From positions 76,254-140,253 of the forward strand of contig JAZJXX010000019.1 of the NCBI GenBank assembly GCA_040390665.1: 64,000 nucleotides of DNA, in the 5' to 3' direction. This DNA is from Pseudomonadota bacterium (GTDB taxonomy: Bacteria; Pseudomonadota; Gammaproteobacteria; Burkholderiales; Gallionellaceae). The translations under genes were made by a program, and so were the position numbers. Positions 1-13,872 of the stretch are shown here, one piece after another. Position 1 is the first letter of the stretch, and each line of letters starts with the position of its first letter. The notes under the pieces were generated by a model that did no database searches, was not told where the DNA came from, and saw only the letters and a program-made list of their open reading frames with translations.

Positions 1-411
1 AAATTTATCGGTTTTGACGTATATCGCACCTATTACAATGAGTAGCACGCCGAGTGCAATTAAATAGCGCTCGCTTGTGAGATTGAAGCTAATTAAGGGA
101 ATGATAGAGGTAGTCAGAAATGCCAAATGTTCATAGCTGATGTCTTCGACTGACGTTATGGTAACCGGGATGGACTTACTTCCAGCGATTTTGTATTCGA
201 ATCTAAAATAGTAGAAGGCACTAAGCAATCCGAAAAATAAAGCTATGAGAGGAACAATATTTCGCTTTCCTAGGTTAGTTAAACCGATGAATTCGCAGTT
301 ATAATCAAAACAAAAAGGAATGTCGAGAGTGACAATAATGATTAGCAGAAATAGCAACCAAAGGGAGATAACATATAGCTCAAACTTCTCAAGTGTTCTG
401 TTTGTTGTCAT
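1..411 (-). CDS. kwaA: Kiwa anti-phage membrane protein KwaA-like (3' end runs off the window; not in ORF track)
   Basis: My translation from ATG 411: MTTNRTLEKFELYVISLWLLFLLIIIVTLDIPFCFDYNCEFIG...VEDISYEHLAFLTTSIIPLISFNLTSERYLIALGVLLIVIGAIYVKTDKF. 137 open codons, several TM segments, and LYxxSLWLLF / YEHLxFL / IYVKTD motifs that I recognise from KwaA. Confidence 0.75.
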   Translation of the reverse strand, partial: MTTNRTLEKFELYVISLWLLFLLIIIVTLDIPFCFDYNCEFIGLTNLGKRNIVPLIALFFGLLSAFYYFRFEYKIAGSKSIPVTITSVEDISYEHLAFLTTSIIPLISFNLTSERYLIALGVLLIVIGAIYVKTDKF

Positions 412-556
412 GTACTCGTCTCTTAGAGCTCTACGTGAGATGCTTAGTAATCATTGCCGCTACTTCTTCAGATTTATGATTTCCGGACAATCTAACACTC
501 CCCTATTCAGAATTTGAGTGTGGCTATTTTAGGAATGCTTGCTCCTGGAGTTATCA

Positions 557-686
557 TTTTACATATATGCCCACTTTGCCCGGAGAGTTAGTGCCCTCAA
601 TTGGCGAGTCTTACTTGCTAAACCACCGCCGATAACCTAAACCGCAATCAGCTCGCTTTTTGGCTTTGGGTGATTCCCGCCGTACA
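557..686. repeat. Copy A of ~130-bp imperfect direct repeat (relic of repressor 3' end plus downstream DNA)
   Basis: Aligns by eye with 1811-1942 (shared ccctcaattgg, ctaaaccaccgccgat, accgcaatcagctcgc, tttttggctttggg); retains codons for V.RE.PKAKK with a frameshift. Confidence 0.9.
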
Positions 687-742: not shown

Positions 743-808
743 GCATAACGTGGCGTTGAGGCGCCTGCGCGGCTTTTCGCGCAGGTTCTTCGAACGCAGG
801 GTTTATGC
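743..808 (-). repeat. Integron attC site (attC1)
   Basis: Minus strand GCATAAAC-CCTGC-GTTCGAAG-aaCCTGCGCGaaaagcCGCGCAGGcg-CCTCAAC-GCCAC-GTTATGC; R'' overlaps the stop codon of the 803-1303 gene and carries one extra A. Confidence 0.85.
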
Positions 809-1303
809 ATCTGAGCGGACATTAGCGTTGTAGACCTTGGCGTTGATGCCATCAAGGTGACCAACAGTTTTCGCGAACGGGCGCACCCTGCAGTTGAATT
901 CGATATTTCCATCCAGCGCGACGGGATTGTCTTTATAGAGTCTAGCCATTTGGTTGGCATGACCATCCGGGATGGTTCCGCTAATGTAGAACGTGGTGAG
1001 TTCGCCAGAAGAAATGGTCTGCTTTTTCAAGATTAAGGCATCTAGAGTGCCACCACCAAACCAGAACCGAAAGCTCGCGCGATCCAATTCGACGGAGAAC
1101 GGCGAGAGGTTGATGACTTGGAGGTACAGATTGAAATATGCCGTTTGCCCAAGATGGACTTCGGCTGAGTCATGGCGAGGCCGAACGTCGACGTAAATTA
1201 ACTGAGCCAGTCTTTCTTGCGTGAAGTACCGCTTAAGAAGAAAGCCAGGCAGCCGGCGCAACAAGAGCCAGACGCCTTGAATTGGGATGGTCTCAATTAC
1301 CAT
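803..1303 (-). CDS. Hypothetical protein (166 aa), integron cassette gene
   Basis: ORF fills the space between attC2 R' and attC1 R''; beta-rich sequence with no family I recognise. Confidence 0.85.
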   Translation of the reverse strand: MVIETIPIQGVWLLLRRLPGFLLKRYFTQERLAQLIYVDVRPRHDSAEVHLGQTAYFNLYLQVINLSPFSVELDRASFRFWFGGGTLDALILKKQTISSGELTTFYISGTIPDGHANQMARLYKDNPVALDGNIEFNCRVRPFAKTVGHLDGINAKVYNANVRSDA

Positions 1304-1322
1304 TTGCGGTCACCAAAAAGAT

Positions 1323-1385
1323 GCATAACGTGGAGCTAAGGGCTGCGCCGCTTTTGCGCAGTCCGGCTTGAGCGTAGGGTTAGGC
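1323..1385 (-). repeat. Integron attC site (attC2)
   Basis: Minus strand GCCTAAC-CCTAC-GCTCAAGC-cggactgcgcaaaagcggcgcagc-CCTTAGC-TCCAC-GTTATGC: canonical R''/L''/L'/R' boxes, spacers and two extrahelical bases. Confidence 0.92.
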
Positions 1386-1439
1386 TCATTGAACGCCATG
1401 CGCCAACACTCAAGCTTTAGCAGTGCAATAAACGGGCAG

Positions 1440-1700
1440 TCACTCTTTGCTTTCCAACGCGTCTGCAATTCGAGACAGAATGTCACCGAAGCCGCCCATT
1501 TGTTCGTCATGATAGTCACCAGCCAAAGACAAAATTGAGTTTTTGCGCTCCATTTCTAGCACGCGTTTTGCCTCGATTACAGATTCGATAGTTATTGAGT
1601 GTTTTTTTGCCATTTTTGCAGCCTCTGCAAGAAATGCATCGAGATAATCGTGTTGAACGGAGTAGGAATCTCTTGTAGGTTGACTTCCTAGTACAGCCAT
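1440..1700 (-). CDS. Hypothetical protein (86 aa, acidic/helical), possibly a cassette gene
   Basis: GGAG SD before ATG 1700 (MAVLGSQPTRDSY...); the track's upstream extension to 1853 is unlikely; stop lies 55 nt before attC2. Confidence 0.75.
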   Translation of the reverse strand: MAVLGSQPTRDSYSVQHDYLDAFLAEAAKMAKKHSITIESVIEAKRVLEMERKNSILSLAGDYHDEQMGGFGDILSRIADALESKE

Positions 1701-1810
1701 ATTAATTACTCCTAAGCGTGAAATTGATGAGACCAAAGTAAAATAGATGGCAAAACCTCCTGATATTCTGGAATGGTTCGCCGCATATTCCGTTGTATTT
1801 CTAATTATTG

Positions 1811-1942
1811 TTTCACATCGATGCCTACTTGCCCGAGAGTCTAGCGCCCTCAATTGGTGAGTCTTTACTTTCTAAACCACCGCCGATAAACCTTAACCGC
1901 AATCAGCTCGCCTTTTTGGCTTTGGGCAATTCCCGCTGTACA
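1811..1942. repeat. Copy B of ~130-bp imperfect direct repeat
   Basis: Covers the last ~13 codons of the intact repressor and ~90 nt downstream of it. Confidence 0.9.
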
Positions 1943-2175
1943 TCTTCTACTTCTGGATGTTTTTGTTTGACCACTTCGTCGCTTAACAGATAAGCCGCGT
2001 ATTCAGGCCACGCCTGCGCAATGGCGATGAGGATGCCCGCTTTCGGTTCTCTATTTCCTTGCTCTATTCCTATTAGCGTACCTTTGGGGATTCCGGTTTT
2101 ATCGACGAACTCCTGCCTGCCCATCCCCAGGGCTTCGCGCACATTTCTTATTTTTTCACCAATAGGGGTTGACAT
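1903..2175 (-). CDS. XRE-family HTH phage repressor (Pf4r/RstR-like position)
   Basis: GEKIRNVREALGMGRQEFVDKTGIPKGTLIGIEQG HTH; divergent from the phage late genes. Confidence 0.9.
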   Translation of the reverse strand: MSTPIGEKIRNVREALGMGRQEFVDKTGIPKGTLIGIEQGNREPKAGILIAIAQAWPEYAAYLLSDEVVKQKHPEVEDVQRELPKAKKAS

Positions 2176-2218: not shown

Positions 2219-2263
2219 AAACAGGTATAGTTCAATATAGTGCTGCAACAACAGGAGCCGATT

Positions 2264-2494
2264 ATGAACGCCACATCCGAACCCGGTCAATTCACCCCTG
2301 AGCTGCTCGCTCAATCCCTTGCACTCCCTCTAATCGCACGCGAACGTTTCGCAGAACTCTGTGGCGTCTCCGACGGCGTCGTCCAAGGCTGGATTGCACG
2401 CGGTTATTTACCCGTCTATGAAATCGGCAAATACCGCTTGGTCAACCTGACCCTGCTGCATCAAATGGCCTTGAACAAGGCACCGTGGCTATGA
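2264..2494 (+). CDS. Excisionase/activator-like DNA-binding protein (XisF4-like)
   Basis: AGGAG SD; RERFAELCGV...VQGWIARGYLP..EIGKYRLVNL motif; sits opposite the repressor as in Pf phages. Confidence 0.8.
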   Translation: MNATSEPGQFTPELLAQSLALPLIARERFAELCGVSDGVVQGWIARGYLPVYEIGKYRLVNLTLLHQMALNKAPWL

Positions 2495-2715
2495 ACACCC
2501 CTCAGCCACCCGCCAAAGTACATCTCTCCATCGGCCACGACCGCTCCCTGTGCGGCCTCGCCCCGAAGAACGGCCCGTACCGCATCGTCTCACAATACAA
2601 CCTTTTCACCGCATCCGAAACCAATCAATGCGGTAAATGCATCGAAGCCCTCAAACGTCGCGGCTACACCCTCCCGCAGAAGCCCTCTGCAGCCCGTCAC
2701 CAACCCGCACGCTAA
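2491..2715 (+). CDS. Phage hypothetical protein, possible Zn-binding
   Basis: ATGA overlap with the previous gene; H..CG and CxxC residues. Confidence 0.65.
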   Translation: MNTPQPPAKVHLSIGHDRSLCGLAPKNGPYRIVSQYNLFTASETNQCGKCIEALKRRGYTLPQKPSAARHQPAR

Positions 2716-2854
2716 AGAGGCCCAATCATGCAAATTTACACCGCCCTGCGGAAGGGCAAAAAAAGTCGGGCGGAGGTAGTAGCACCGCCCGAAGGTCCCA
2801 TCTACGGGAATTTCACCGTCTGAACGGCCCCCTTCAAACCAGAGATTCCCGACC

Positions 2855-3085
2855 ATGACAAAACGGCCCGAATTTACCCACAAACCCGCTTCAGAAAAAC
2901 TCATTCTGTTGCGTAACGACCTCGACCAAACCGCCGACCGGCTGCAAACCCTGCGCGACCACCTCGCCTTGTGTACCGAAGACCCGATCCTCCAATCCGA
3001 TCCGCTGACTGCTGCCATCAAGTCCGCTGACACAGCGCAAAGCGCTATCGAAGAAACCCGCCTGCATCTGGCTGGAATACGGTAA
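2855..3085 (+). CDS. Phage hypothetical coiled-coil protein
   Basis: 76-aa ORF; TAATG overlap with rep. Confidence 0.6.
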   Translation: MTKRPEFTHKPASEKLILLRNDLDQTADRLQTLRDHLALCTEDPILQSDPLTAAIKSADTAQSAIEETRLHLAGIR

Positions 3086-4335
3086 TGGGCATCGACACCG
3101 TGAAACTTCGTTCCCCCTCACTAGATGCCGAACTTGCCGACAGGTTGGAGCGCCTCTCCATCCTCAAGCAAGGTATCGATCTTTTCTCCGGCGAAGAACT
3201 CTGGAACATCACCACCGGCGAACTGGACGGCAGCTATGACAGCCGCATCAGCTTTCGCGTCATGCGCGAAGACTTCGTCTGCGACAAAAACGGCACACCC
3301 CATCTGCAACCGTGCGACCCGTACATCACTGTCGAAGCCTCCTGGCCCAAAGTCTTCCACGGTCAGAACGTCTACGGCACCATAGACCACTTTCAGGACT
3401 CGGCCGAATGGTTCGTTGAAGTCCTGCAAAGCCTGTTCGGTCTGGCCGACGACGAACTGCCCTACGCCAAACACTGGGAAGTGCGCCGCATCGACTGGGC
3501 GGAAATGTTCGACCTGCCGCAGGCGGCTATCGGCGACTTCTTCCGCTGCTTCTCCGCCTGCAAATTCCCGCGCCGGGGCAAAAAAACCGCCAAGCATGGT
3601 GATCACTCCATGCACTTTCCCGGATCCACAACCACCTTGCGCCTCTATCACAAAGGCCCTGAATTCAAAGAACACGACCAAGCCAGAATCAAGCAATCCT
3701 TCGTCAAATACTTCCGCGAACGCTTCGAGCTCATGCCCATTGATGAAATCTACAAACTCACCAACCGCAAAGTAAAAGCCTTGCAACGACTCGCCGACCG
3801 CCGCCTGCGCTGTGAAGTCCAGATCAACGCCAGAAAACTTCAGGACGACTTCGCCGCGCAACTCATCGCCGAAGGCAAAGACCGCAAATACCCCAAGGTC
3901 TCCGAAATCACCGACGAGTACCTCATCAACATCTACCAGACCGAAATGCAAAAACTCCTCAAGGAAGGGAAATCCGACATGGACACCGTACGCAACCACG
4001 ACGCCGTAAGAAACCGCCTGATCAGCCTATACGGCAAACGCACCGCTCAACTCCTCATGGCCTTCTGGATGAATCTGGCCGCGCAGGGCGAAGACATCGC
4101 CAAAGACATGTACTCAAAATCGCGCTACTACGCCAACCGAAAAAAACTTATGGACGCCGGAGTTTCCTGGCATGCCTCCAACATCTACATCCTGCCGCCG
4201 CAATCGCTCCTGCCGGTGGACTTCCAACCCTTGCGCAACTCAGCGCGCATTTGCCAATTTCCGATCAGGCCCAGCTCGCTGCTCAACCTGTGCCCAACGG
4301 AATACCAGCAAGCCGTCACCCGTAGGGCGGCTTAA
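3085..4335 (+). CDS. Rolling-circle replication initiator, phage/plasmid gene II/X family
   Basis: N-terminal GIDTVKLRSP, plus RRIDWA and LYHKGPEF motifs typical of the family; position before SSB. Confidence 0.9.
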   Translation: MGIDTVKLRSPSLDAELADRLERLSILKQGIDLFSGEELWNITTGELDGSYDSRISFRVMREDFVCDKNGTPHLQPCDPYITVEASWPKVFHGQNVYGTIDHFQDSAEWFVEVLQSLFGLADDELPYAKHWEVRRIDWAEMFDLPQAAIGDFFRCFSACKFPRRGKKTAKHGDHSMHFPGSTTTLRLYHKGPEFKEHDQARIKQSFVKYFRERFELMPIDEIYKLTNRKVKALQRLADRRLRCEVQINARKLQDDFAAQLIAEGKDRKYPKVSEITDEYLINIYQTEMQKLLKEGKSDMDTVRNHDAVRNRLISLYGKRTAQLLMAFWMNLAAQGEDIAKDMYSKSRYYANRKKLMDAGVSWHASNIYILPPQSLLPVDFQPLRNSARICQFPIRPSSLLNLCPTEYQQAVTRRAA

Positions 4336-4364
4336 CCCACCACCAACCTTTGAAAGGAACCGTC

Positions 4365-4718
4365 ATGAACCAACCGCAAACCCAAGCCCCCGCAGTTACC
4401 CCAATGCCAGCTAAATCCCACACGCTGGCGTTAGCGCAAACCTATTTGCAGGGCCGCATCGTCTATATCCGCACCAAAAAAACCGACAACGGCCGCTTGT
4501 TCTTAACCATCCTCAAAATACCCGCTGTCGACCAATTCAGCCATCCGGCCACCGTAGAAGTTTCCAGCAACGAGAAACTCGGCGAGATCAACGACGACTG
4601 GAAAGGCGTCTGCCAGATTACCGGCTATCCACGAACCTACGACGGCAAACCAGATCCTGAAACAGGGGAAATACGAACCATGCGCACAGCGACCATCTCC
4701 CTGCGCGTGGTCGAATAA
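4365..4718 (+). CDS. Single-stranded DNA-binding protein (pV equivalent)
   Basis: AAGGA SD; beta-rich OB-fold-like 117 aa between rep and coat; GEIR near the C-terminus. Confidence 0.75.
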   Translation: MNQPQTQAPAVTPMPAKSHTLALAQTYLQGRIVYIRTKKTDNGRLFLTILKIPAVDQFSHPATVEVSSNEKLGEINDDWKGVCQITGYPRTYDGKPDPETGEIRTMRTATISLRVVE

Positions 4719-4793
4719 ATTTTTCAGCTTACTGGATTGGGGACACTTCCCCGAGGCGACCGGGCGCTACCCGGAAATCGAAAGGAGAAAGTC

Positions 4794-4985
4794 ATGAAAC
4801 GCAATACAAAACGCGCACTGGCAGCACTGGGCACCGCACTACCTACACTGTCGTTCGCCGATGTACCGACGAACGTCAGCACGGCCATAACCAGTGCCGG
4901 AACTGATGCAGCCGCAGCAGCCGGATTGGTGTTGGTGGCCATTGTCGGCATCTTCGCCGTGAAGTTGATCCGCAAGGGTCTGTAA
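4794..4985 (+). CDS. Major coat protein (pVIII)
   Basis: AGGAG SD; signal peptide ending SFA, Ala-rich amphipathic helix, TM helix and basic tail KLIRKGL. Confidence 0.9.
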   Translation: MKRNTKRALAALGTALPTLSFADVPTNVSTAITSAGTDAAAAAGLVLVAIVGIFAVKLIRKGL

Positions 4986-4986
4986 T

Positions 4987-5334
4987 ATGGGCGGCTATTC
5001 GGTGAACGGTATCTGCTACGCCTCGACGCAAGAGGCGGTGGACGCTTATTACTCGAATAGCCATCCTCAAATAATCCAGACGCCAACCGCCGTTTTCAAA
5101 GTCCAGTACCTGCAAACTGCGGGCGCTTGGCAAAGTGTTCAGGAGACAGTGTCCGGGAGCGGCGAAACCACCGCCGTGACCGTCGCGCCCGCTCCGGTCA
5201 ATGTGTATGGAGCATGTTCGCTGCCCAACTCCAGCTATGAGAATTTTTCAGACGGCCAGACGCTCGGCTGGGGCGTCGCCTCGGCGCTCACCGCCACGTT
5301 TGCAATCATGCTGCTCAGAAAGGTCTTCCCATGA
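4987..5334 (+). CDS. Inovirus virion-associated protein with C-terminal TM
   Basis: GYSVNGICY N-terminus; GWGVA..L...FAIMLLRK membrane tail. Confidence 0.75.
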   Translation: MGGYSVNGICYASTQEAVDAYYSNSHPQIIQTPTAVFKVQYLQTAGAWQSVQETVSGSGETTAVTVAPAPVNVYGACSLPNSSYENFSDGQTLGWGVASALTATFAIMLLRKVFP

Positions 5335-5405
5335 ATATCACGGATGTTTATACCCTTGCCGGGTTTCTGATCATCGTCCTGCCTTTCTGGATGATGATGA
5401 AATGA
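5331..5405 (+). CDS. 24-aa hydrophobic minor coat protein (pVII/pIX-like)
   Basis: MNITDVYTLAGFLIIVLPFWMMMK; ATGA overlaps on both sides; below the ORF-track cutoff. Confidence 0.65.
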   Translation: MNITDVYTLAGFLIIVLPFWMMMK

Positions 5406-6736
5406 AGATCATCATTGCCCGCCTGATGCTCCCGCTCTTTACCCTATTTACAATTATGACCCCGTACAGAGTAGTGCAAGCGGTAGTCATTCCGTTTCCT
5501 GCTGTGCCGCTCGCGGTCGAAGCGGTTACCCAAGCGGGTGCCGTTGTAGCGATGTCTAACCCGCTGGCGCTGGGGACCGTATTGGCACTGGGCGTCATCG
5601 CCTATTTCGTGCTGCGCGATAGTTCCAAATCTTCCGACCTGGCTAAAATTCCTGCGGGTAAGGCCGCAGGCAACGCGATAGCTGCTCCGACTGCGCCCGG
5701 CTCAACAAGTCAAATTCCTGGCGCACGTAAATGGTTTGTGAACACCGGCTGTTTGGGTGGCGTAACCCACACCGGTTTTTCGACCGGAGCCGCCGCATTC
5801 ACAGACTATGTCCAAACGATCAATACAGTCTCGGCATGTACCGGGAATGGCGCTTATAAATATTCAGTTTGCGATGCTGAGCAATCGACCGTGACGTATT
5901 CATATAATGGCGGACCTCAAGTTGCCTGCCATTCCCCCACGGGCGTTTTCTTTAGTCAGGAACCGACGACGTGCCCGAGCGGATATGCCATGAGCGGCAA
6001 TTCCTGCACGCTTACCAATGCCTATCAAGCCAACCCTAATGCTTCAGTAGACTTCAACCGCTCGGGTGAAACCTTCGGACAGCCCGCCGGAGCCCCCACT
6101 AAAAAGGGCGGTATAGCACCGCTGACCACTACTACAAGTACATCGAACGACACTATTTACCAGTCCGGCAAGGACGCCAACGGCAATCCGATGGCTGTCA
6201 GCCTGCAGGCTACCGCTGCCGGTACTACGCTAAATGTGCAAACCCAAAAAACCGACGCCAACGGAAACAGCTATGTTTCGAACAATGCCTATAATTTCGA
6301 TCCGGCTGGCGTACCCTTGGGGACGACCCAGAATGCTACTCAGCAAACCTTGGCCCTTGATCCCAATACAGGCCAGTTGCAGGCAGCTCCCGCGCCAGCC
6401 AACACCGCTTCACCGGCAACCTCGCAATCACCGGCGCCTGCCGCATCGCCTACTGACTGCCAGCTTTTTCCTGACGCCTCCGGCTGCCAGCCTCTGGGCG
6501 ACATTCCCGATAATGAATTGCAGCAAAAAAACATTCCCATCTCCATTACCCCGGTCTCGATAGGCGGCGCGGGTGTATGTCCGCAACCAAGGATATTCCA
6601 TGCCGGGGGTCACAATTACACCTTGAGCTATCAGATGATCTGCGATTTCGCATCAGGTGTCCGCCCTGTAATCCTCGCGCTGGCGTGGCTGTTTGCCGGC
6701 ATGACCTTAATCGGAGGAATGCGCTCAAATGGCTAG
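5402..6736 (+). CDS. Adsorption protein pIII-like with TspB-like C-terminus
   Basis: Signal-like N-terminus, Cys-rich Thr/Gly domains, Pro/Ala linker, CP.P...ICDFA..VRPVILALAW anchor. Confidence 0.85.
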   Translation: MKIIIARLMLPLFTLFTIMTPYRVVQAVVIPFPAVPLAVEAVTQAGAVVAMSNPLALGTVLALGVIAYFVLRDSSKSSDLAKIPAGKAAGNAIAAPTAPGSTSQIPGARKWFVNTGCLGGVTHTGFSTGAAAFTDYVQTINTVSACTGNGAYKYSVCDAEQSTVTYSYNGGPQVACHSPTGVFFSQEPTTCPSGYAMSGNSCTLTNAYQANPNASVDFNRSGETFGQPAGAPTKKGGIAPLTTTTSTSNDTIYQSGKDANGNPMAVSLQATAAGTTLNVQTQKTDANGNSYVSNNAYNFDPAGVPLGTTQNATQQTLALDPNTGQLQAAPAPANTASPATSQSPAPAASPTDCQLFPDASGCQPLGDIPDNELQQKNIPISITPVSIGGAGVCPQPRIFHAGGHNYTLSYQMICDFASGVRPVILALAWLFAGMTLIGGMRSNG

Positions 6737-7004
6737 CATTGGCAGCTTTCTGGCAATGATCGCCGCGCCGGTCGCGAAGCGCGTTCTTACCGGATTGGGG
6801 GTAGGTGTCATCACTTACGCGGGTCTCGATTCCGCGCTGGGTGTTATACAAAACGCAGTCATCAACAACCTCGGCGGAATGAGCGGGGACCTAGCCAACT
6901 TCTTTGCTTTGGCCGGGGGCAATCAGGTAATCGGCATTACATTAGGGGCATTGGCTGCGCGGGTGACCATGGCCACGCTTACCAGATTGGGGAGACTGAA
7001 TTGA
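6729..7004 (+). CDS. DUF2523-like minor coat protein (pVI)
   Basis: Hydrophobic 91 aa, LGVGVITYAG motif, between pIII and zot. Confidence 0.85.
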   Translation: MASIGSFLAMIAAPVAKRVLTGLGVGVITYAGLDSALGVIQNAVINNLGGMSGDLANFFALAGGNQVIGITLGALAARVTMATLTRLGRLN

Positions 7005-8044
7005 TCACCGTGATCACCGGAGTTCCCGGCACAGGCAAGAGCGCCCTGATCGTCTCGATGCTTCTCCAGATCGCCAAAACCGGCAGAAAAATCTACGTCG
7101 ATAACATCCCGGAGCTGGCTATCGATCATGAACCGGCTGGGGATATCCTGAAGTGGCCGGATTGGGCGGAGGAGGGTGCGCTAATCGTGATCGACGAGTG
7201 CCAGCGTCATTTCCGCCCGCGTCATTCCAGCGCGGCGGTTCCGCGCCATGTTGCCGAGCTGGAAACGCACCGTCATCGCGGTTTGGATTTCTGGCTGATC
7301 ACACAGCGCCCGGCCTTGATCGAATCAAACATACGCGGCCTGTGTGGCCGCCATATTGCCATACGCAATACCTTCTTCGGTCGCTATACCTATGAGTGGC
7401 CGGAAATGGGCGATGTCGAGAGCGAAACATCGCGTGCGATAGCGGCCAAGGCGCGCTACAAACTGCCCAGGCATGTTTTTTCCTTATATAAAAGCGCGTC
7501 GGTTCATACTAAAACATCGGCCAAGATGCCGACCCCGGCCAAAATTGCCTTGGGATGCCTGGCGTTTTCAATAATCGGCGGTACCTACTTCTATCAACAA
7601 TATGCCGCTCGATTCAGCCATGACAAAAATGCCGTTACAGCGCAGCTTGGTAACGGTGTAGTTCCATCGGTAGCAGTGGTTCCCGCAGCACAGCCAGCAG
7701 GATCGGGGACAGGAGTATTGGGTGAGTCGGTACAGGATTACTTGCCCGCGATCCCGAACCAGCCGGAAACAGCGCCACTATATCGCGCCGTGCGCCAAGT
7801 GGTTGCAATGCCTTGGCCATCAGCCTGTGTCGCTTCTGAAACCCGGTGTCTATGCTATACCTCGCAGGGCACCAGACTGGGCAATATTGATCAGGATGCT
7901 TGCCTGAAGATCGTCACCAATGGCCCACAGTTCAATCCCTACAGGGCGGTAACTGGGGAGCGGGAGGCGCAGCCGACGCACCCAGTATCCGCCGTAGTGG
8001 CGTCAGCATCGGCACCTTCGCCCCCGCTTTTTACTTTCCAGTAA
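7001..8044 (+). CDS. zot: Zot/pI morphogenesis ATPase
   Basis: ITGVPGTGKS Walker A, IVIDECQ Walker B, HRHRG.D..LITQ, TM segment. Confidence 0.95.
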   Translation: MITVITGVPGTGKSALIVSMLLQIAKTGRKIYVDNIPELAIDHEPAGDILKWPDWAEEGALIVIDECQRHFRPRHSSAAVPRHVAELETHRHRGLDFWLITQRPALIESNIRGLCGRHIAIRNTFFGRYTYEWPEMGDVESETSRAIAAKARYKLPRHVFSLYKSASVHTKTSAKMPTPAKIALGCLAFSIIGGTYFYQQYAARFSHDKNAVTAQLGNGVVPSVAVVPAAQPAGSGTGVLGESVQDYLPAIPNQPETAPLYRAVRQVVAMPWPSACVASETRCLCYTSQGTRLGNIDQDACLKIVTNGPQFNPYRAVTGEREAQPTHPVSAVVASASAPSPPLFTFQ

Positions 8045-8286: not shown

Positions 8287-9051
8287 TTACTTCCGTTTCT
8301 TGTACTCAAAATCCGCGCCACGCTCCTTCAATATGGCGATCACTTTTTCTTTCCAGGGTTGCATTTTTGTGTTATCCGGCATCGGCATATGAGAAATCTC
8401 CGTAGCCAATTTATCTAACCCGGCCGTCAGTCCATGCTCGAGACAGTAAGCGATAATATCAAATCGAATAAGTACTAGTGCTCTATTCGCCGCAGTGCCT
8501 TCATATTTATCCTGCCAGTTGATATCGAGCCCGTGCTGCAAAAGGATTTGAATATTTTCCATGCGGCCCTGCCGAGCTGCAGTGAAGGAAATTCTCGCCT
8601 CCCCTGTAACTATGTCCGGCGCAATCAAATTGGGATTGCCGTGATGTTTCAGTAGCAATTTTAAAATCTCGGGCTTGTCGCCGCCGGCAGCGGCATACAT
8701 GGGCGACACCTGACGTTTGGGTGCCACATAGTTCGGGTCGGCGCCGGCTTTCAGCATGTATTCCAGACGTTGAACCTCCCAGCGCGTGCCGCCCATGATC
8801 CACAGCAAGGGAGTGATTTCCTCTTCACCGTTCATATTGACCTGTGCACCTTGTGCCAACAGGCGATCGGCTTTGGCATAATCGTCGTGCTCGATGGCAG
8901 TAACCCACTCTGCTGTGGCTTTATCATGGAACGCCTGTAGCGCCGTCATCCCGCCTACCTGGGTTTCCGCACAAACTGTTGTTACCATCGTCATCCCCAC
9001 CGTTAATAGGGCAATTCGCCAGCATTTAATAACACACGCTATTTGAGGCAT
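8287..9051 (-). CDS. Secreted ankyrin-repeat protein (phage accessory gene)
   Basis: GGGGA SD, N-terminal signal-like segment, repeats ITPLLW..LKAGADPN, SPMYAAA..LLKHHGNPN, LLQHGLDIN. Confidence 0.88.
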   Translation of the reverse strand: MPQIACVIKCWRIALLTVGMTMVTTVCAETQVGGMTALQAFHDKATAEWVTAIEHDDYAKADRLLAQGAQVNMNGEEEITPLLWIMGGTRWEVQRLEYMLKAGADPNYVAPKRQVSPMYAAAGGDKPEILKLLLKHHGNPNLIAPDIVTGEARISFTAARQGRMENIQILLQHGLDINWQDKYEGTAANRALVLIRFDIIAYCLEHGLTAGLDKLATEISHMPMPDNTKMQPWKEKVIAILKERGADFEYKKRK

Positions 9052-10210: not shown

Positions 10211-10258
10211 GGACTCATAATCCCTTGGTCGCTGGTTCGAGTCCAGCACGACCCACCA
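10211..10258 (+). repeat. att site: 3' half of tRNA-Ile2 (CAT anticodon)
   Basis: GGACTCATAATCCCTTGGTCGCTGGTTCGAGTCCAGCACGACCCACCA resembles the 3' half of ileX; no 5' acceptor/D arm upstream, so it is not an intact tRNA. Confidence 0.9.
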
Positions 10259-12588: not shown

Positions 12589-13452
12589 ATGCCGCTGTCT
12601 GGTCTCAAACAATTTCGTCTCTGGCTTGAAAGTTTTCCTGCTGAGCAGAAGCTCCCTCTGATACAAGAATTTCTGCGAGGAATTGACGATCCGGAAAAAC
12701 GCGCCTTAACAGAGATTTTTCTAATCCAGGGGCAACTTGAAACAAGAAAGCAAATTGTAGTGTTGATACATGGCATCCTGTCTCACGGAGTCTGGCAGGA
12801 GCGGCTCGTGCATATGTTTGCTGAAGCTGATATAGAGGCGCATGCAATTGGTTTCGGATATTTGGATATATTAACGTTCTGGTCGCCAGTTTTCACGAGA
12901 AAGAGTTCCATCAAGCGGGTTTTGCGCGAGCTCAGGAATCTTCGTGCAGCCAATCCAACTGCGGACATTTCAGTTGTTGCCCATAGTTATGGAACTTACA
13001 TAATTTCAAGAATTCTGGGCGAGGAAATGGATATAAAAATTCATCGCCTGCAACTTTGTGGCTCTATACTTCCTCAAGACTATCGCTGGGATAAGGCACT
13101 AGCCGGGGTAACCGGGACGGTTGTTAATGATGTCGGGACGGACGATATCTGGCCGGTGATGGCTAAACTCGCATCGTGGGGATATGGAGTCAGTGGAACA
13201 TTTGGATTCAAAACGATACGCGTGATTGATAGATTTCACCCTTGCAGCCATAATGATTTTTTCAAAGAGGAACATGTGAAAGCGTACTGGTTACCGTTTC
13301 TTATTTACGGGCAAGTGGTTCGCTCCAAGTGGACTCAGGAGCGGCCTGACCCCGGCTTGGGCATTACTTTGCTTAGCTGGTTACCGCTTAAGACTATTGT
13401 TGGGATCATTGCGTCAATTTGGCTCAGCTATAAGGTGGTTAGCTATTTTTAA
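12589..13452 (+). CDS. Alpha/beta hydrolase with C-terminal TM
   Basis: VVLIHGI oxyanion motif, AHSYG nucleophile elbow, candidate Asp (DDIWP) and His (HNDFF), hydrophobic C-terminal tail. Confidence 0.88.
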   Translation: MPLSGLKQFRLWLESFPAEQKLPLIQEFLRGIDDPEKRALTEIFLIQGQLETRKQIVVLIHGILSHGVWQERLVHMFAEADIEAHAIGFGYLDILTFWSPVFTRKSSIKRVLRELRNLRAANPTADISVVAHSYGTYIISRILGEEMDIKIHRLQLCGSILPQDYRWDKALAGVTGTVVNDVGTDDIWPVMAKLASWGYGVSGTFGFKTIRVIDRFHPCSHNDFFKEEHVKAYWLPFLIYGQVVRSKWTQERPDPGLGITLLSWLPLKTIVGIIASIWLSYKVVSYF

Positions 13453-13614
13453 TTTCTAAGTGCGTTATCTATTGCGTGATGTGGTTATAGGTGCAAGATA
13501 GTCAATCGAGCGGCTCATGACATTGCTGGCCTACTCAAGGTTGTTCGGTACTAAAAATGTATCAACTGAACTACAATATCCTCAACATACCTAAAGTTAA
13601 ATCAGGAGAGAGTC

Positions 13615-13683
13615 ATGGGAAGTAAGGACAAGAAAAAGGAATCAAAAGGAAAAAAACCCCAGCCTAAACCGGTAGGTAAGTAA
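13615..13683 (+). CDS. 22-aa Lys-rich peptide
   Basis: AGGAG SD; MGSKDKKKESKGKKPQPKPVGK. Confidence 0.45.
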   Translation: MGSKDKKKESKGKKPQPKPVGK

Positions 13684-13872
13684 CTGCACTGTATATGGCA
13701 GCGCAGCTCTACTAGCTTGGTTCAGGCAGGGCATAAATTACTTGTTGGTTGAGCTGCAGGCGGAAGCTTGGTGTCGGTACGAAAATACAATCAAATCTGT
13801 TGTAAAATTTTATTAGTTTACAAACACTTGTATTTATATTCAATTTTTCCGCAAAAATAATTAAAAAAAGCC

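Follow-up and report, generated by a model that had tools for sequence, protein, structure and literature searches.

A two-gene Kiwa operon in the integrase-repressor slot of a filamentous prophage at tRNA-Met of a Gallionellaceae/Nitrosomonadales bacterium

The left edge of the 64,000-nucleotide stretch of DNA analyzed here (the window, G000:C19:76254-140253) cuts through kwaA, the first gene of a two-gene Kiwa operon whose second gene, kwaB, lies immediately outside it. This operon is probably horizontally acquired, low-GC cargo in the integrase-repressor slot of a ~19-kb Pf-like prophage, which is inserted at tRNA-Met in an uncultured Gallionellaceae/Nitrosomonadales host. The window's own contig was extended 14 kb leftwards, and this extended sequence is referred to as L004, with L004 coordinates equal to window coordinates plus 14000.

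The kwaA and kwaB genes

The features of the Kiwa locus are as follows.

window 1..411, minus strand: 5′ 137 codons of kwaA (ORF list and PADLOC KwaA)
L004 13824..14411, minus strand: full kwaA, 195 aa, reaching 177 nt beyond the left edge of the window (ORF list of the extended sequence)
window 412..550, minus strand: AT-rich 5′ leader and putative promoter region of kwaA (sequence)
L004 ~12852..13827, same strand as kwaA: kwaB, 320 aa when intact, outside the window and immediately to its left (PADLOC and Pfam)

The list of open reading frames gives a frame of 137 codons with an ATG start on the minus strand at window 1..411, cut by the window edge. The first-pass annotation, made from the letters of the window, had read this frame as a multi-TM, KwaA-like gene running off the edge, had expected a YANP motif to continue it and kwaB (DUF4868) to follow immediately to the left, and had set a match to a KwaA HMM as the test, all of which was borne out in the extended sequence. 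The open codons close as an ORF of 195 aa. PADLOC KwaA model PDLC00219 matched the 137-aa partial ORF with E=9.7e-50, a match far above chance, and the full-length protein with E=1.4e-71 over profile positions 3-191 of 194. The cryo-EM structure of E. coli KwaA (PDB 9mrg_A) was matched by residues 5-192 with E=2.4e-37. Hydropathy peaks at residues 13-31, 51-69, and 109/116-134 indicate multiple TM segments, and the first residues past the window edge, 138-141, read YVNP (in the local sequence KTDKF-YVNP-TLA) at the positions where E. coli KwaA and the consensus of 17 aligned family members have YANP. PF28043 was precomputed for the 195-aa KwaA and for 120 homologues among the matches listed, several of which carry the NCBI name "anti-phage protein KwaA". 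The protein thus has the length (~175-215 aa), the multi-pass membrane character, and the profile match that define the KwaA component of Kiwa. Judged by its sequence, window 1..411 holds the initial two-thirds of a true kwaA.

It is next to impossible that this interval is instead a fortuitous reading frame or codes for a small membrane protein unrelated to Kiwa. Such a reading could point to the Pfam-A search, in which KwaA had no match, using a Pfam copy that contains no KwaA model. It is countered by the KwaA models at 1e-50 to 1e-71, the adjacent DUF4868 partner, and the precomputed PF28043, and was refuted by the KwaA profile matches together with the match to the solved KwaA at 1e-37. 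Upstream of the gene, a simple consensus scan of the window 412..550 region found no sigma-70 promoter, a negative that carries little weight; GC content across window 1-600 is ~38%.

kwaB starts 4 nt ahead of the kwaA stop on the same strand, forming an ATGA overlap at L004 13824-13827. The assembly to which the window belongs shows kwaB as two ORFs that overlap (154 and 200 aa), the first of which matches positions 1-141 of PADLOC profile PDLC00233 (E=3e-38) and the second positions 141-316 (E=1e-68), with a further match of the second half to Pfam PF16162 (DUF4868, E=2.8e-32). The break coincides with a run of exactly 10 N at L004 13404-13413, at codons 139-141, followed by the 12 nt TCATCGTCATCG, a hexamer repeated twice, which differs from sibling assemblies and stands where intact homologues have three codons. 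Read literally, the N run and these 12 nt shift the kwaB frame. A 35-kb contig of another assembly (L010), 99.88% identical to the element across 15.5 kb, has TACCCGATC (YPI) at the gap site and an unbroken 320-aa kwaB, which matches the solved E. coli KwaB (PDB 9o0i_H) with E=2.1e-40. Another sequencing run likewise gave a Logan contig (L012) that reads TACCCGATC through the gap site with the frame unbroken. KwaA was also recorded on further contigs besides the window's own. Since both L010 and L012 read through the gap, the 10-N run and TCATCGTCATCG are probably an artefact of a scaffold join; a short repeat polymorphism (TCATCGTCATCG versus TACCCGATC) might also account for the difference.

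These data bear on whether this Kiwa could be a dead remnant, its kwaB truly disrupted by a frameshift or a split and its defence lost. The 10 N and the divergent 12 nt at codons 139-141 would fit such a loss, and split KwaB loci are known (70 of 9,797; 10.1101/2023.02.26.530102). However, the halves contain no stops and are 71-83% identical to homologues with an intact gene, the unbroken frame is present in two further assemblies of the element, and a scaffold-join marker is the simplest account of the N run. We regard a dead remnant as very unlikely, and a split or frameshifted kwaB was rejected on these grounds.

KwaB accordingly has the DUF4868/PF16162 domain and the length (~300-320 aa) of the second Kiwa component; in the assembly that contains the window, the 10-N run falls on codons 139-141. 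The two genes are adjacent on the same strand, and the homologous loci L006, L007, and L009 are arranged alike. On these grounds kwaA and kwaB are a bona fide two-gene Kiwa operon, predicted to be translationally coupled via the ATGA overlap.

The filamentous prophage and its cargo slot

The operon lies within an element whose features, from left to right, are listed below.

L004 4979-5055: attL, the tRNA-Met (CAT) gene itself (ARAGORN)
L004 5160..6173, minus strand: tyrosine integrase beside attL (integrase domains)
L004 6687..8444, minus strand: retron type I-C RT-Toprim, 585 aa, ~5.6-7.3 kb left of the window (PADLOC single-gene models, E=7e-229)
L004 8897..10661, minus strand: umuD (Peptidase_S24) and umuC (IMS family), error-prone polymerase genes (Pfam)
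L004 10965..12723, plus strand: RmrT/RmrA pair, convergent with kwaB (PADLOC RmrT, E=4.5e-63; RmrA, HTH + M78 peptidase, E=2e-149)
window ~551..686, plus strand: decayed second copy, in direct orientation, of the repressor 3′ tail together with the DNA that follows it (86% identity, own-genome search; repeat families D3, D4, D6, and D8; alignment A1)
window 743..1853, minus strand: two small cassettes with ORFs of 166 and 137 aa, between Kiwa and the live repressor (ORFs; repeat D5)
window 1903..2175, minus strand: HTH repressor of the inovirus, 90 aa (Pfam HTH_19/HTH_3; PHROG transcriptional regulator; 76% aa identity to L016)
window 2240..8044, plus strand: inovirus core, comprising Xis-like protein, G2P replication initiator, SSB, CoaB major coat, TspB-like adsorption protein, DUF2523 (g6p-like), and Zot assembly ATPase (Pfam, PHROGs)
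window 10212..10258, plus strand: attR, repeating the 3′ portion of tRNA-Met, anticodon loop through CCA (exact 47-nt repeat)

The full core gene set of a filamentous phage (G2P Rep, SSB, CoaB, adsorption, g6p-like, Zot, repressor, and Xis) is therefore present, and Kiwa is located between the attL and attR sites. By blastn the att repeat extends to 52 nt at 98%, so that the direct repeat measures ~48-52 nt overall, and a pattern search allowing up to 3 mismatches found no third copy. Two att copies enclosing the integrase, the cargo, and the core delimit an element of ~19.2 kb. The first-pass annotation had placed the gene in a prophage, right after a relic copy of the repressor tail. Both statements agree with the extended sequence: the att repeats enclose integrase, cargo, and inovirus core in a layout shared with a 9.4-kb relative, and the decayed copy, whose partner is window 1805-1942, lies just upstream of the kwaA start.

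Proceeding rightwards from kwaA, the order is decayed repressor tail, two cassettes, HTH repressor, and inovirus core; leftwards from kwaB it is RmrA/RmrT, umuD/umuC, retron RT-Toprim, tyrosine integrase, and tRNA-Met, followed by the host genes yqeY, dnaG, and rpoD. The slot between integrase and repressor thus measures ~9.7 kb and contains the retron I-C RT, umuDC, RmrT/RmrA, Kiwa, and two integron cassettes. RmrA and RmrT together presumably constitute the RosmerTA system. With the retron, RmrT/RmrA, and Kiwa, three recognized defence systems are stacked in one filamentous prophage, and umuDC is unusual cargo for a phage of this kind. Neither cassette ORF had a PADLOC or Pfam match; behind each cassette lies an attC-like repeat, at window 743-810 and at window 1321-1385. 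The attC-like repeat, matched over window 1326-1383, has at least 7 further copies, 0.4-1.9 kb apart, at 26.7-32.7 kb of contig C13 of the same genome, which looks like a chromosomal integron cassette array.

Related prophages define the slot. A groundwater Nitrosomonadales MAG contig (L016, JACRPU010000016.1) carries a 9.4-kb prophage at tRNA-Phe, with amino acid identities to the present phage of 72% for Int, 76% for the repressor, 65% for Xis, 86% for Rep, and 79% for SSB. The two share an att running from the tRNA anticodon loop to the 3′ end (a 46-nt repeat in L016) and the integrase-slot-repressor layout, whereas L016 differs in its tRNA-Phe site and in a slot of ~0.9 kb, against ~9.7 kb here, which holds a single DUF2726 nuclease-like gene. 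Two other contigs, L033 and L036 (Rep 80-86%), have the same layout as L016, namely int / DUF2726 / repressor / xis / Rep ... Zot. In L016, L033, and L036 the integrase has been inherited together with repressor, Xis, Rep, and SSB, and it is therefore the phage's own, so that the cargo is bounded by a phage integrase and not by that of a separate island. The same comparison identifies the integrase-repressor interval as a variable cargo slot, with Kiwa inside it. Kiwa was found in none of the six related phages examined.

Several further observations were made on this lineage. The DUF2726/REase-like gene stands beside the repressor in L016 (8393..9235, minus strand), L033 (8148..9047, minus strand), L036 (1116..1958, minus strand), and L035 (2292..2948, minus strand); this gene may have been the slot's original occupant, and it could have a role of its own in exclusion or defence. 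The two integrases, 72% identical, use different targets, tRNA-Met (L004 4979-5055) here and tRNA-Phe (L016 7231-7306) in the relative, both duplicating 46-48 nt. Both ends of the 9,450-nt contig L036 fall within the att core and overlap by only 13 nt, a pattern compatible with a prophage and a circle alike. Between Zot and attR, an ankyrin-repeat protein is encoded at window 8287..9051 (minus strand) with a weak match to the PADLOC candidate PDC-M72A (E=1.6e-12), and this interval is a second variable region, occupied in relatives by other small genes or a ParB_N protein. Relatives of Rep were absent from IMG/VR, and the JGI metagenomes contained just two short contigs with 44% identity; the closest Rep in the phage record collection, 41% identical, belongs to phage WC36-1.

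The nearest named homologues of the host RpoD (85-88%) come from Gallionellaceae, Nitrosomonadales, Sideroxydans, and Candidatus Nitrotoga, and the host is placed by this likeness as an environmental betaproteobacterium of the Gallionellaceae/Nitrosomonadales. The pairing of rpoD with tRNA-Met is conserved in 31 of 34 congeners. Downstream of it, none of the right-flank genes were present within 1.5 kb in nine congeners or within 14 kb in four, and no unoccupied site was seen among them. In the latter four (L027-L030), the 14 kb after tRNA-Met contained none of the genes of this contig, flhDC included. The absence of shared genes in these flanks indicates that the region downstream of tRNA-Met is highly variable or rearranged across the genus.

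Other Kiwa loci and the origin of the cargo

kwaAB has a GC content of 41%, below that of the phage core (55.5%) and of the host (55.7%); the cargo overall is heterogeneous (41-52%). The kwaAB locus had no DNA match in 24 congeners. The nearest KwaA and KwaB homologues, at 77-80% amino acid identity, were found in the metagenomic loci L006, L007, and L009. These resemble the present locus in Kiwa subtype, in the overlap of kwaA and kwaB, and in protein length (194-201 and 320-326 aa), but their settings are defence islands (neighbours: TIR, Mrr, radical SAM + UDG) or an integrase/TrfA element, and not inoviruses. Low GC, the lack of a DNA match in congeners, and nearest homologues outside inoviruses together indicate that kwaAB is a recent foreign acquisition.

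Kiwa as cargo of a filamentous prophage in a slot beside the repressor has already been published. Pseudomonas phage PfAC02a (OR790968), a Pf phage at tRNA-Met, carries Kiwa and ShosTA in the slot beside repressor C (PMC11878078). Among 1,262 dereplicated loci, ~197 kwaA genes are prophage-associated (10.1101/2023.02.26.530102), and Pf phages with defence cargo are in general well documented (PMC11341870, PMC12328805). The present phage and PfAC02a are both filamentous prophages at tRNA-Met in which Kiwa is stacked with another defence system in an accessory slot adjacent to the repressor, and in the circular form both have the order structural genes, integrase, cargo, and repressor. In comparison, the present phage belongs to a different lineage, has attP on the other side of the integrase, an early instead of a late Rep, and a length of 19.2 kb versus 13.4 kb. 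The two Kiwa systems showed no detectable BLASTP relation (E=2.4 and 0.07). This, together with the differing phage lineages, points to different Kiwa subtypes that would have been captured independently. No close relative of the present Kiwa was found in viruses, either by an IMG/VR scan with KwaA or by a tblastn search with both proteins in 50,697 phage records, a collection that includes PfAC02a, whose Kiwa is too divergent to be detected by tblastn.

A composite element would offer another explanation of these features. In that case Kiwa, RmrT/RmrA, umuDC, and the retron would be cargo of a genomic or defence island at tRNA-Met, with which an inovirus module had merged or into which it had decayed, and virions would not mobilize them. 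It would be in keeping with a cargo block (~9.7 kb) larger than a whole related phage (9.4 kb), with the heterogeneous GC of the cargo, with the decayed second repressor tail as a sign of past recombination or of a lost second phage, and with the distribution just described, in which the closest KwaA homologues occupy defence islands and non-inovirus integrative elements and viruses yielded no close relative. A point against the reading as phage cargo is that, at 19 kb, the genome has about double the length of those of the relatives; the prophage might accordingly be defective or its cargo unpackaged. On the other side stand the presence of just two att copies, which together enclose integrase, cargo, and phage core, and the co-inheritance of the integrase with Rep and repressor in the 9.4-kb relatives (L016, L033, and L036), by which it is not an island's. 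Filamentous capsids lengthen with the genome, which also counts against a composite. Pf phages of 13-14 kb bearing defence cargo in a slot of the integrase-repressor type are likewise documented (PMC11878078). We consider a composite origin unlikely and favor acquisition of Kiwa as cargo of the phage itself.

Comparison with E. coli Kiwa and biological meaning

The locus was compared with the characterized Kiwa of E. coli (PDB 9MRG, 9MRR, 9MRX, and 9O0I; 10.1101/2023.02.26.530102). Both are two-gene operons with kwaA first, both have a KwaA of ~195 aa with multiple TM segments and a KTDK-Y-x-NPTLA block, and both have a KwaB of ~320 aa with DUF4868, with full-length matches of E=2.4e-37 for KwaA and 2.1e-40 for KwaB. 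In E. coli KwaB, mutation of the basic residues R142, R167, K187, and R233 abolishes DNA binding (10.1101/2023.02.26.530102). In the phmmer alignment with 9o0i_H these align to K145, R170, K190, and R236, and a basic DNA-binding surface is predicted for the present KwaB. In contrast, the KwaA loop K75/N77/Q79 that contacts KwaB in E. coli is A76/S78/S80 here, and its partner Y157 of KwaB is R160. By these alignments, the small KwaA-KwaB interface detail of the E. coli system is not conserved; the contact loop also varies among the tested E. coli Kiwa systems. A further difference is that the present Kiwa belongs to an environmental Gallionellaceae/Nitrosomonadales bacterium.

By homology to the E. 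coli system (10.1101/2023.02.26.530102), KwaA would form a tetramer embedded in the inner membrane, on which dimers of KwaB would dock. KwaB would be activated when the membrane is disturbed, whether in conjugation or as a phage attaches or ejects its DNA, and would then bind the incoming DNA through DUF4868, stalling replication forks and blocking late transcription. Both genes are required in E. coli, and Kiwa is inhibited by DNA mimics such as Gam (10.1101/2023.02.26.530102). Published Kiwa reduces the uptake of plasmids as well. A chronic, non-lytic inovirus would gain from a host that survives attack by lytic phages. The first-pass annotation suggested that the inovirus equips its host to resist lytic phages, which is reasonable in view of the work on Pf phages (PMC11878078, PMC11341870). 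We infer that the present Kiwa would be expressed, would act in defence by such a mechanism, and would be packaged with the rest of the cargo into virions.

A broader and rather doubtful proposal is that this lineage uses the slot as a stackable mini defence island. The retron I-C, RmrT/RmrA, Kiwa, and the cassettes double the genome, and recombination at the conserved repressor tail would pass whole modules from one inovirus to another, the decayed tail before kwaA being the scar of such an import. A membrane-sensing Kiwa would then have to ignore its own extruding carrier, or might exclude rival filamentous phages.

The reading from sequence correctly predicted both a kwaA cut by the window edge and a partner kwaB that could not be seen in it. 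The picture known from P. aeruginosa Pf phages, with Kiwa or other defence genes beside the repressor, is extended by this locus to an unrelated inovirus lineage, to environmental Gallionellaceae/Nitrosomonadales, and to another subtype of Kiwa, and this speaks for capture on repeated, independent occasions. Within a small space, the locus also offers a natural case in which a single filamentous prophage has several defence systems stacked in it. It could serve to examine whether inoviruses enlarged in this way continue to package their cargo and to spread it.
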